IMG/VR virus record: IMGVR_UViG_2657245461_000004
Direction: 5' to 3' (one strand)
Length of the DNA stretch: 4,538 bases
Origin: a virus
Taxonomy: Duplodnaviria; Heunggongvirae; Uroviricota; Caudoviricetes
The notes beneath the pieces were generated by a model. That model worked only from the letters and a program-made list of their open reading frames with translations, made no database searches and was not told the DNA's origin. A program made the translations under genes and the position numbers. Below, one piece after another: positions 1,055 through 3,755 of the stretch. Positions within the stretch are counted from its first letter, which is position 1, and the number at the start of each line of letters is the position of its first letter.

Positions 1055-1684
1055 TCAGCCCCGGCTGGATCCAGTCATCAGGCTCTTTCTTAAAGGGGGA
1101 GTATTGAAATCACGAAGAAGAGCCTCCCGCACCGCAGCATCCATGTCTGCACCACTGGCAAGTGCTTCAATCTCTGCCGCCACCTGCAAATACCCCATGC
1201 AACGGCCAATGCGTTTCATAACTCTGGTGTTTTCGTCTTTCAGGCATCTGATAGCGAGATTAATAATTTTCAGGCAGTGATGATGCGATGCCCGGACAGG
1301 TTTTCCGTTCTCATAAACGACGAACTCACCCTCTTCACAGGAAACCCTGAAAGGCCGATGGGGTTCCTGGTCTTTATCCGGTGCAGACGCAATAAAATCA
1401 CTTTTATGCTCTTCCTCTCCGGCACTGTTAACCGTAATGACGTACTCAGGCCGCAGGTAAGCCGCCTCTTTTTCTGACAATGCGGCCGGTAAAAACTTTT
1501 CCTGCAAAAACTTCATAAAAGTCTCGTGAGCGACTTTGTGGCAGTAATCGTAAATCGCCGCATAATGCTCATCGCGGCGTTTGTTTTCATCTTCAGAACT
1601 CACCAACGCCGACAATTTTTTATTAAGCTCAGTGATTTCATTTTCCAGGTGATTGAATCGCTGATTCATTTCTTCATGCTTCAT
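1055..1684 (-). CDS. hypothetical protein, 209 aa, acidic, no TMD; inserted between pinholin and endolysin
   Basis: Long ORF starting ATG 1684..1682, 4 nt after the holin-A stop (TAAATAATG), with an SD-like GGGGAGAG upstream. N-terminal coiled-coil-like segment (EEMNQRFNHLENEITELNKKLSAL), several Cys/His (YCHKVAH, HHHC). I recognise no family from the sequence. Coding status is supported by length, coupling and absence of a competing sense-strand ORF. Confidence 0.6.
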   Translation of the reverse strand: MKHEEMNQRFNHLENEITELNKKLSALVSSEDENKRRDEHYAAIYDYCHKVAHETFMKFLQEKFLPAALSEKEAAYLRPEYVITVNSAGEEEHKSDFIASAPDKDQEPHRPFRVSCEEGEFVVYENGKPVRASHHHCLKIINLAIRCLKDENTRVMKRIGRCMGYLQVAAEIEALASGADMDAAVREALLRDFNTPPLRKSLMTGSSRG

Positions 1685-2563: not shown

Positions 2564-2638
<75 letters not shown>

Positions 2639-2641
2639 ATA

Positions 2642-2717
<76 letters not shown>

Positions 2718-2719
2718 AC

Positions 2720-2796
2720 TGGACCGCCACCGGGGACTCGAACCTCGCACACTCAACTTAAAGGGTTGACGCTCTTTCCTGATGAGCTAGTGGCGG
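2720..2796 (-). tRNA. atypical tRNA-like gene, anticodon UUU (Lys) if functional; possible pseudo-tRNA
   Basis: Reverse complement CCGCCACUAGCUCAUCAGGAAAGAGCGUCAACCCUUUAAGUUGAGUGUGCGAGGUUCGAGUCCCCGGUGGCGGUCCA folds as a cloverleaf with a perfect 7-bp acceptor stem and anticodon stem UCAAC/GUUGA. Non-canonical features: loop CCUUUAA has C at position 33, the 5' end is C1, the discriminator is U73, and the T-stem has an A-C mismatch. Confidence 0.5.
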
Positions 2797-2797
2797 T

Positions 2798-2873
2798 TGG
2801 TGGCCCTTGCTGGATTTGAACCAGCGACCTGGCGATTATGAGTCGCTCGCTCTCACCACTGAGCTAAAGGGCC
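2798..2873 (-). tRNA. tRNA with anticodon CAU, most similar to tRNA-Ile2 (lysidine-modified, AUA decoder); Met not excluded
   Basis: Reverse complement GGCCCUUUAGCUCAGUGGUGAGAGCGAGCGACUCAUAAUCGCCAGGUCGCUGGUUCAAAUCCAGCAAGGGCCACCA. Canonical cloverleaf, anticodon loop CUCAUAA. About 90% like E. coli ileX as I recall it, with C4-G69 and C5-G68 acceptor pairs. Same position as ileZ in Stx-type phages. Confidence 0.8.
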
Positions 2874-2882
2874 GGGCGCAGG

Positions 2883-2911
2883 ATAATAACGTTACGAAAT
2901 CAATGTTGCAA
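2883..2911 (-). promoter_or_regulatory. candidate sigma70 promoter for the tRNA cluster
   Basis: On the minus strand: TTGCAA (2911..2906), 17-nt spacer, TATTAT (2888..2883). The first tRNA 5' end (2873) lies about 10 nt downstream of the -10. Sequence-pattern prediction only. Confidence 0.45.
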
Positions 2912-2975: not shown

Positions 2976-3004
2976 CACAAAAAACCCGCTTGTGGGCGGG
3001 TTTT
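2976..3004 (-). terminator. intrinsic terminator (tR'-like), potentially bidirectional
   Basis: Minus strand AAAA-CCCGC-CCACAA-GCGGG-TTTTTTGTG: 5-bp GC stem, 6-nt loop, U6 tract. The plus strand reads as a hairpin followed by TTTTGTTTG. Lies about 70 nt downstream of the putative late promoter. Confidence 0.65.
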
Positions 3005-3054
3005 GTTTGCTTTTGCCATCACGTACAAAATCGGCAAAGTATCAGATTTGCATG

Positions 3055-3083
3055 AATATATGCCTTTCAATCTACTTTTGCAA
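3055..3083 (-). promoter_or_regulatory. candidate late promoter (pR'-like) overlapping the 3' end of Q
   Basis: Minus strand TTGCAA (3083..3078, within the last Q codons), 17-nt spacer, TATATT (3060..3055) directly after the Q stop. This is the position expected for pR'/qut in lambdoid phages. Sequence-pattern prediction only. Confidence 0.5.
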
Positions 3084-3755
3084 CACTTTGCTTTGAAAAT
3101 GCCGTCTTTTTTTTGAACGTGTTCTCATTACAAACAATAAAGCCTCACTATCCAGTCGGTGAAAAATGTGTTTCATTGCAACCCAGTGACGAGTAAATGT
3201 TTTGGACCAGTTTTTAGTTGTCACTCCCGCCAGTAATGCCAGCTCCTGGTATTCATAACCTTCCCCACCAAAAAGTTCTGCTTTTACTGCCTGCGCCGCC
3301 AGCCAGATTAATTTTTTCAGGCGTTCCTGCGTTTTCCCTGCAATTTTTCTGGTACCGGATTGAGCATTAAATTCATTCCACGCCCACTGTGTTATCGCGA
3401 TCTGATATTCCCAACAAATACTCCCGCTGTAACACCACAACAACCAGGCTTTATAGTGCTCTTCAAGAGACAGAACAGCCCGCCGCCACGATGATGTCGA
3501 AAACTCAACCGGACTGACCAGAGGAATTGACGTCCCCTTCGCCAGCGATTGCTTTCCCGGGATTGGTGGATTATCCCGCGTTATCATTTTTCCAGTCACT
3601 TCATCGCGGTACCGGATTTTTTTACGCCTGTAACGCCCTGTATCGAACATGGCATTCTCTTGCCAGGCTTCAAGCTGACCTTTTGTTGCCCCACTCAAAT
3701 CAGCGGTGGCGATAATGAGCTGCTCACGCACAAACTGTAAATACTGGTTATTCAT
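3072..3755 (-). CDS. Q: putative late-gene antiterminator Q (non-lambda type)
   Basis: About 227-aa ORF whose ATG (3755..3753) overlaps the rusA stop (ATGA). The ORF track starts at GTG 3761. Position between rusA and the pR'/tR'/tRNA/lysis block matches Q of lambdoid phages. Several Cys/Trp-rich segments. The call is mainly by synteny; I cannot verify homology without a search. Confidence 0.6.
   Translation of the reverse strand: MNNQYLQFVREQLIIATADLSGATKGQLEAWQENAMFDTGRYRRKKIRYRDEVTGKMITRDNPPIPGKQSLAKGTSIPLVSPVEFSTSSWRRAVLSLEEHYKAWLLWCYSGSICWEYQIAITQWAWNEFNAQSGTRKIAGKTQERLKKLIWLAAQAVKAELFGGEGYEYQELALLAGVTTKNWSKTFTRHWVAMKHIFHRLDSEALLFVMRTRSKKRRHFQSKVLQK

Follow-up and report, generated by a model that had tools for sequence, protein, structure and literature searches.

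Positions 2,976 to 3,083 of the viral DNA studied here (4,538 nucleotides (nt); Caudoviricetes; IMG/VR record IMGVR_UViG_2657245461_000004; the whole stretch is called the window below) carry on the minus strand what is, with a probability of roughly 0.85, the late-gene control module of a lambdoid prophage of the phage 82 type, made up of the late promoter pR', a Q-utilization site and the intrinsic terminator tR'. The assignment is carried by the sequence elements and their positions, by their conservation beside genes of the Q82 antiterminator family, and by their agreement with the pause coordinates of phage 82. A preliminary description of this DNA had read a promoter here (-35 TTGCAA, a 17-nt spacer, -10 TATATT), followed by a GC hairpin and six Us, and all of these are present on the minus strand (Table 1). 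The promoter also overlaps the stop codon of Q as described, the codon lying inside the spacer. In full, the motif of the window has the form TTGCAA-N17-TATATT-N7-AATCTGATAT. The layout had been likened to the pR'/tR' module of lambda and the Stx phages, with its short leader RNA. The lambdoid module and its leader hold up, the arrangement being conserved across most related loci (153/173), but the nearest relative has to be changed: the Q proteins of lambda and the Stx phages belong to other families, and the closest known system is that of phage 82.

Conservation of the module beside Q82-family genes

The Q protein of the window matches Pfam family PF06323 with an E value of 3.7e-91. Three unrelated Q families are recognized in the literature, PF06323 being that of Q82, and the paper that names these families considers the mechanism of the Q82 type unsettled. 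The Q of phage 434, annotated as 'Q82-like' in its record, is 73% identical to the window Q, and AntQ of Gifsy-1, annotated as similar to phage 82 Q, is 68% identical. No PDB chain matches the window Q by sequence.

A comparison set of 173 sequences encoding relatives of the window Q, the window included, was drawn from annotated phages, IMG/VR contigs and one genome per species. It was searched for the composite pattern TTGNNN, 16-18 nt, NANNNT, 4-9 nt, ANTNTGRTA. The pattern was found on the Q strand in 153 of the 173 loci and on the opposite strand in one, while 20 shuffles of all loci gave 28 matches, or about 1.4 per set. The 153 loci are a minimum, since several of the 20 sequences with no match stop at a contig edge or deviate slightly from the pattern. 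In 112 of 150 loci the start of the -35 element precedes the end of the Q stop codon by 16 nt. In 23 others the whole promoter lies 4-31 nt after the stop; these include Hafnia phage yong2, Escherichia phage LLS and Citrobacter phage phiNP, whose Q proteins are only about 32-35% identical to that of the window. Since the promoter lies beyond the Q stop in these 23 loci, its conservation is not a by-product of the Q coding sequence.

Conservation extends to positions that the pattern leaves free. Among 95 unique sequences, CAAAA at -32 to -28 is kept in 90-95 (A-29 and A-28 included) and T-6 in 93, and within the spacer A-23 is found in 94, A-19 in 95 and A-18 in 87. In the transcribed region T+11 (91/95), T+14 (95/95), C+17 (92/95) and T+25 (83/95) stand out. 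The invariance of T+6, G+7, T+9 and A+10 is uninformative, these bases being set by the search pattern. With a strict hairpin-plus-U-tract rule applied within 320 nt of the motif, a terminator is present in 140 of the 153 motif-bearing loci, and in 132 of these 140 the predicted RNA is 50-99 nt long. A terminator is also marked at the corresponding site in the phage 434 record.

According to the literature, lambdoid late promoters in general, that of phage 82 included, have a Q-binding element between -35 and -10. With the position taken from the literature and the residues from conservation, the candidates in the window are TTGCAAAA, A-23, A-19 and A-18. On the plus strand of the same region (3078-3091), the palindromic -35 hexamer and an upstream GCAA together read TTGCAACACTTTGC, which fits the CII-box consensus TTGY-N6-TTGY. 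The phage 434 record annotates an antisense paQ promoter at the equivalent place, and no convincing -10 is found at the usual distance from the plus-strand sequence of the window.

Agreement with phage 82 and comparison with lambda and Stx phages

The pause element of phage 82 pR' is closer to TATAAT than that of lambda and includes an extended -10; GCC is required at +15 to +17, followed by an AT-rich stretch before the pause, with U at +25 and pausing at +25/+26 (PMC5001585). Numbered from the first A of AAATCTG, the common E. coli allele of the module reads A1-A-A-T-C-T6-G7-A-T9-A-T-T-T-T14-G15-C-C17-G-A-T-T-T-T-G-T25-A, and with +1 placed at that A it agrees with all of the published 82 pR' coordinates. 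The sigma70-dependent pause signal that the preliminary description suggested looking for just after +1 is present in the window, as TG-A-TACTTT (+6 to +14), with GCC (+15 to +17) and T+25 after it.

The window and phage 82 share a Q in PF06323, a promoter that overlaps Q at its 3' end, a pause element of extended -10-like form (+6 to +14), GCC at +15 to +17, T+25, an intrinsic terminator giving a short RNA, and lysis genes downstream. Relative to the phage 82 type, the window has C for T at +11, one base fewer between -10 and the start, and a frameshifted Q tail. Lambda 6S and StxS resemble the window in logic, with a constitutive late promoter, a sigma70-dependent promoter-proximal pause, early termination that yields an abundant short RNA in lysogens, and Q-dependent readthrough. 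Additionally, in Stx phages as in the window the leader is followed by tRNA genes with their own promoter, there located between tR' and stx2AB. In contrast, lambda Q belongs to the unrelated family PF03589, the lambda pause falls at +16/+17 rather than at the +25/+26 predicted for the window, and the StxS primary transcript ends 258 nt from pR', which makes it a longer leader than that of the window.

By analogy with phage 82, host sigma70 RNA polymerase would start constitutively at about position 3049. After about 21 nt sigma70 would re-bind the extended -10-like element at +6 to +14, and the polymerase would scrunch and pause at about +25. Without Q it would escape the pause and terminate at the hairpin and U6 near 2979, releasing a two-hairpin RNA of about 71 nt. 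A Q of the Q82 type, bound to its DNA site in the spacer and acting with NusA, would make the paused polymerase resistant to terminators, so that it would read through tR' into the tRNA, holin, lysozyme and Rz genes. A leader of about 70 nt running from 3048 to 2979 had been proposed; its end and its size (71 nt) stand, but homology to phage 82 places the start at 3049.

The module is a well-studied system, common in E. coli, and finding it here is correct but ordinary; the known picture of Q antitermination is unchanged by these results. What is added is a motif that finds the module, a link between IsrJ and Q82-type leaders, and a set of unusual changes in the window allele. A simple DNA motif is enough to find the Q82-type late promoter across Enterobacteriaceae. 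The module is the switch for expression of lambdoid prophage lysis genes and of any tRNA or toxin genes inserted after it, and recognizing it lets annotators mark the true start of the late operon, as well as an abundant lysogen RNA that pipelines miss.

Departures of the window allele

Several points weigh against the assignment of the module to the phage 82 type. Promoter-like sites found by scanning the window for consensus sequences number 3, where 1.9 are expected by chance, and terminator-like sites number 1 where 1.3 are expected. Consensus matches are therefore no better than chance when taken by themselves, and the case for the feature rests on conservation. The identification with 82 pR' comes from published coordinates and not from a sequence alignment, and the spacer residues named above are candidate positions only for Q binding. 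That the window promoter fires, pauses and terminates, and that Q acts there, is something we infer from the sequence. The pause hexamer of the window, TACTTT, matches TATAAT at 3 of 6 positions, compared with 4 of 6 in the common allele. A frameshift in Q alters the last 13 codons (KQKAAFSKQSVAKVD becomes KKRRHFQSKVLQK), and RefSeq lists an allele carrying this frameshift as a pseudogene (E. coli FDAARGOS_944). Finally, the exact 75-nt sequence of the window promoter and leader start is absent from all 5,426 RefSeq E. coli genomes.

The scan counts would suit a chance occurrence of the hexamers, with the hairpin serving as the terminator of the Q (delayed-early) transcript. This is contradicted by the retention of the arrangement beside Q in 153 of 173 loci, where about 1.4 would be expected, even in phages whose Q is only about 32-35% identical, and by the match of the pause positions to the published phage 82 data. 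A chance origin is thus very improbable.

The changes in the allele bear on another alternative, in which the module is a decaying remnant of a cryptic prophage that still makes the short RNA but has lost Q-dependent antitermination. The base at +11, within the pause hexamer, is C in the window and T in the common allele (TG-A-TATTTT), C being rare, and the gap from -10 to the AAA start is 5 nt rather than 6. In Q, comparison with the intact relative L002 shows a 1-nt deletion, the C of TCAAAACAAAAG being lost to leave a run of eight A (3072-3125). A version of the module 95-99% identical to that of the window, with one or two differences, occurs in 878 E. coli genomes, and among the matches listed all but one are the common allele. 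Besides what seems to be the source IMG/VR contig, E. coli ECMA0423 and Shigella flexneri SFBU1023 are the only other carriers of the window variant. These two also have CCCTCC for CCCGCC in the tR' stem (leader +52 to +54), a G-to-T change that weakens the terminator relative to that of the window.

The altered pause element, the shortened start region and the frameshifted, pseudogene-annotated Q would all suit a remnant, as would the additional stem change in the only two other carriers and the prevalence of the canonical version over a variant found in none of the RefSeq E. coli genomes. However, the frameshift is limited to the last 13 residues of Q, a tail that is poorly conserved throughout the family. 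The pause element retains TG as well as A+10 and the final T+14, the last two corresponding to key -10 positions, and distant relatives in the family, phage LLS among them, naturally have C at +11. Decay to this degree is unlikely, if credible, on present evidence. Loss of function of the window module is possible from its sequence changes, and the Q-dependent switch may be weakened in this allele while the short RNA is still made.

Predicted structure and variation of the leader RNA

The 71-nt window RNA is predicted to fold into two hairpins (-20.2 kcal/mol, z = -2.9), the first of which is termed stem-loop 1 (SL1). The GC core of the second, the terminator, consists of CCCGC and GCGGG at 3000-2996 and 2989-2985, lengthened by A-U pairs to 3004-2981. 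Downstream of about +26, leaders of the family split into classes. One short class of about 54 nt lacks the first hairpin (434, yong2, LLS, phiNP), and several longer classes have a hairpin at the SL1 position with different stem sequences. Folding predictions for 43 diverse leaders place a hairpin here in most of them, with a mean z of only -1.5 and with stem sequences that differ, and in a MAFFT alignment of the leaders the stems of different classes are out of register. SL1 is accordingly regarded as common in these leaders but not essential. A small protein encoded across the leader (open reading frame (ORF) 3070-2900, hypothetical in phage 606R7) was considered and rejected, related leaders having indels of 1-2 nt there.

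Relationship to IsrJ

The Rfam isrJ model (RF01393) aligns over its full length to window positions 2980-3052, with a score of 23.0 bits that falls below the threshold of 37 and leaves the window RNA outside the family; the model consensus uguAaauCUGAUAuC is aligned to UGCAAAUCUGAUACU. The same model scores above threshold (38-94 bits) directly after Q82-type Q genes in seven other species or phages, and reaches 100 bits in Gifsy-1. There, isrJ is preceded by a TTGCAA-N17-TATATT promoter and the RNA begins UGUAAAUCUGAUAUC. IsrJ and the window RNA have the same promoter and a common first 13 nt, of which 11 are identical (UGCAAAUCUGAUA and UGUAAAUCUGAUA), and they share a two-hairpin layout at similar lengths (74 and 71 nt). 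The sequences of SL1, linker and terminator differ, which accounts for the low score of the window. Additionally, Gifsy-1 isrJ lies 837 nt after Q with an isrK-orf45-anrP module between them, whereas the window promoter overlaps the Q stop.

IsrJ is therefore the leader RNA of a Q82-type late promoter, and the predicted window RNA is a diverged relative that has the promoter and 11 of the first 13 nt in common with it and not the body. The Rfam IsrJ family thus appears to be one branch of the leader RNAs of Q82-type promoters. Experiments have confirmed IsrJ as a 74-nt RNA with high transcription in Salmonella lysogens, from which activity of the window promoter in lysogens would be expected.

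In Gifsy-1 (locus L003, 2690-3625), the canonical Q82-type promoter-plus-pause motif is found at isrJ and not at isrK, and sequence of the Q 3' end and promoter is repeated after anrP (TTGCAAAACTGGATTAAAA). These observations point to insertion of a P1-immunity-like module (isrK, orf45, anrP) that separated Q from its late promoter. IsrK was described in one paper as the antitermination-regulated leader, a role that IsrJ fits better.

A possible trans-acting role for the leader

The main role of the RNA might instead be that of a trans-acting, Hfq-dependent small RNA (sRNA) like IsrJ or StxS, acting on host or phage mRNAs through its A/C-rich linker. Such a role is compatible with a pR' module, to which it would add a layer. 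The predicted RNA has the layout typical of an sRNA, with a hairpin at its 5' end, then an A-rich linker left unpaired and a terminator ending in a U tail, and the A-R-N repeats of the linker may correspond to the motifs of this form that are reported to bind the distal face of Hfq. The Gifsy-1 RNA at this position, IsrJ, has effects on invasion and on effector translocation. Regulatory functions can evolve in such RNAs, according to a review of pR' leaders, examples being IsrJ and StxS, the latter a leader that gained one in trans. Hfq binding and a trans-regulatory effect are reported only for Salmonella IsrJ, as is the role in invasion.

On the other side, the strong variation past +26 and the absence of SL1 from the 54-nt class fit weak constraint on the RNA body, and the score of the window RNA is under the isrJ threshold. 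The only target examined, K-12 GcvB, gives no better pairing in RNAduplex than shuffled controls, its pairing energy being reached by 53% of shuffles of the linker and 65% of shuffles of the whole RNA; action of the linker as an AgvB-like GcvB sponge was rejected on this result. A chiefly trans-acting role is possible but doubtful. It is similarly unlikely, though conceivable, that the Q82-type leaders, the window RNA and Salmonella IsrJ included, make up one widespread family of trans-acting lysogen sRNAs. Were this so, the first 26 nt or so would be held in place by pause and Q-loading signals acting at the DNA level, while the hairpin, A/C-rich linker and terminator would be free to evolve as Hfq-binding and seed regions, and each prophage would gain its own host-directed regulator.

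The sRNAs AgvB, AsxR and Pas were also compared and rejected as the same RNA, being reported at different positions of lambdoid prophages: AgvB and AsxR lie between a moron gene and a downstream conserved phage ORF, PasA and PasC adjoin holin genes, and PasD is near a lambda-type Q.

Comparison with IsrK

IsrK resembles the window RNA in directly following a Q82-family Q gene and in being a short terminated RNA (77 nt). An IsrK-like RNA would act in cis and in trans, switching on translation of a downstream ORF and an antirepressor. The Rfam isrK model (RF01394) matches the window over its full length with 22.5 bits (E = 0.005 in a local search), far under the threshold of 50 and mostly through generic terminator sequence. 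The context also differs: Gifsy-1 isrK overlaps Rfam c4-a1b1 and is followed by the C4 antisense RNA and an antirepressor gene, whereas the window has tRNA genes at this place, no antirepressor gene and no Rfam match to C4 or c4-a1b1. Membership of isrK was rejected on this score and context, with tRNAs rather than orf45-anrP following the leader. The IsrK promoter has a -35 of TTGACA and no TTGCAAAA block, and a -10-like pause element is missing from its start region. The ORF across the window terminator is broken in relatives by indels that are not multiples of three. An IsrK-like function is thus highly unlikely for the window RNA.

Genomic context and distribution

The window as a whole covers the late-control and lysis functions of a lambdoid prophage, all of its genes lying on the minus strand. 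P21-type holin, lysozyme and Rz genes follow the tRNAs in the same orientation as Q. The preliminary description had noted that the -35 hexamer and spacer length of pR' recur at the tRNA promoter, and this is borne out (Table 1).

Table 1. Features of the late-control module and its surroundings in the window. Positions are those of the 4,538-nt window; +1 is the predicted start of the leader RNA.
Feature	Position	Strand	Remarks
pR' -35 hexamer TTGCAA	3078..3083	-	Palindrome; with the following AA forms conserved block TTGCAAAA
17-nt spacer	3061..3077	-	Contains Q stop TAG 3074-3072; expected position of Q-binding element
pR' -10 hexamer TATATT	3055..3060	-	Sequence scan and family conservation
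Predicted transcription start, AAA run	3047..3049	-	+1 = 3049 by homology to phage 82 numbering
Putative sigma70-dependent pause element, extended -10-like TG-A-TACTTT, +6 to +14	3036..3044	-	TG 3044-3043, hexamer 3041-3036
GCC, +15 to +17	3033..3035	-	Discriminator-like segment required for phage 82 pause (PMC5001585); C+17 in 92/95
Predicted pause positions +25/+26 (T, A)	3024..3025	-	T+25 = 3025; predicted from 82 pR'
Predicted terminated leader RNA, ~71 nt, IsrJ-like 5' end	2979..3049	-	Start by homology, end at U6
Leader hairpin SL1, UUUGCC...GGCAAA, +12 to +38	3012..3038	-	Predicted fold
Unpaired A/C-rich linker, part of AAAAGCAAACAAAAC, with A-R-N repeats	3005..3011	-	Predicted fold
tR' intrinsic terminator	2979..3004	-	Stem 3004-2996/2989-2981, loop CCACAA, U6 2984-2979
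Q antiterminator gene, Q82 family	3072..3755	-	PF06323; start GTG 3761 in the ORF list, ATG 3755 in homologues
DUF968/HNH protein gene	4459-4118	-	First in gene order
RusA gene	4117-3752	-	Between DUF968/HNH gene and Q
Separate tRNA-cluster promoter TTGCAA-17-TATTAT	2883..2911	-	10 nt before first tRNA; lacks pause element
Four tRNA genes, anticodons CAT, TTT, TGT, TCC	2564..2873	-	Downstream of tR'; followed by lysis genes

DNA 98-99% identical to the window is present in E. coli chromosomes and in induced E. coli phages, and a 901-nt segment spanning Q and the leader is matched in 1,438 of 5,426 complete E. coli genomes. No RNA is annotated between Q and the tRNAs in the RefSeq or phage records examined. 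The Qin prophage of K-12 was considered as a proxy for transcript data and set aside, its Q (YdfT) lacking the conserved residues of the Q82 family and its locus lacking the motif.

The tRNA with anticodon CAT (in the tRNA stretch 2720-2873, minus strand) is called Met by ARAGORN and Ile by RefSeq in the near-identical locus L001. The tRNA-Lys(TTT) scores 44 bits against 65-73 bits for its neighbors and is uncalled in phage 606R7; it may be degenerate. The stretch from the tRNAs to the holin gene includes an inverted repeat of 13 bp, TATGAATGATCGC...GCGATCATTCATA, at 2274-2344 (duplicated at about 2433-2504), with no Rfam match at 2274-2344. Between the holin and lysozyme genes is a 209-aa ORF (1055-1684, minus strand) with no Pfam match, at a place where relatives have a YdfR-like gene or nothing.

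Two runs of about 10 Ns, at 1874-1884 and 2392-2401, each have near-duplicate sequence on both sides. The holin segments 1688-1873 and 1897-2082 are 88% identical, and 2244-2391 and 2403-2550 are 98% identical. This looks like a scaffolding artefact that fused two prophage alleles and not a true tandem duplication; only one holin gene is present in L001 and L002, which are intact relatives.

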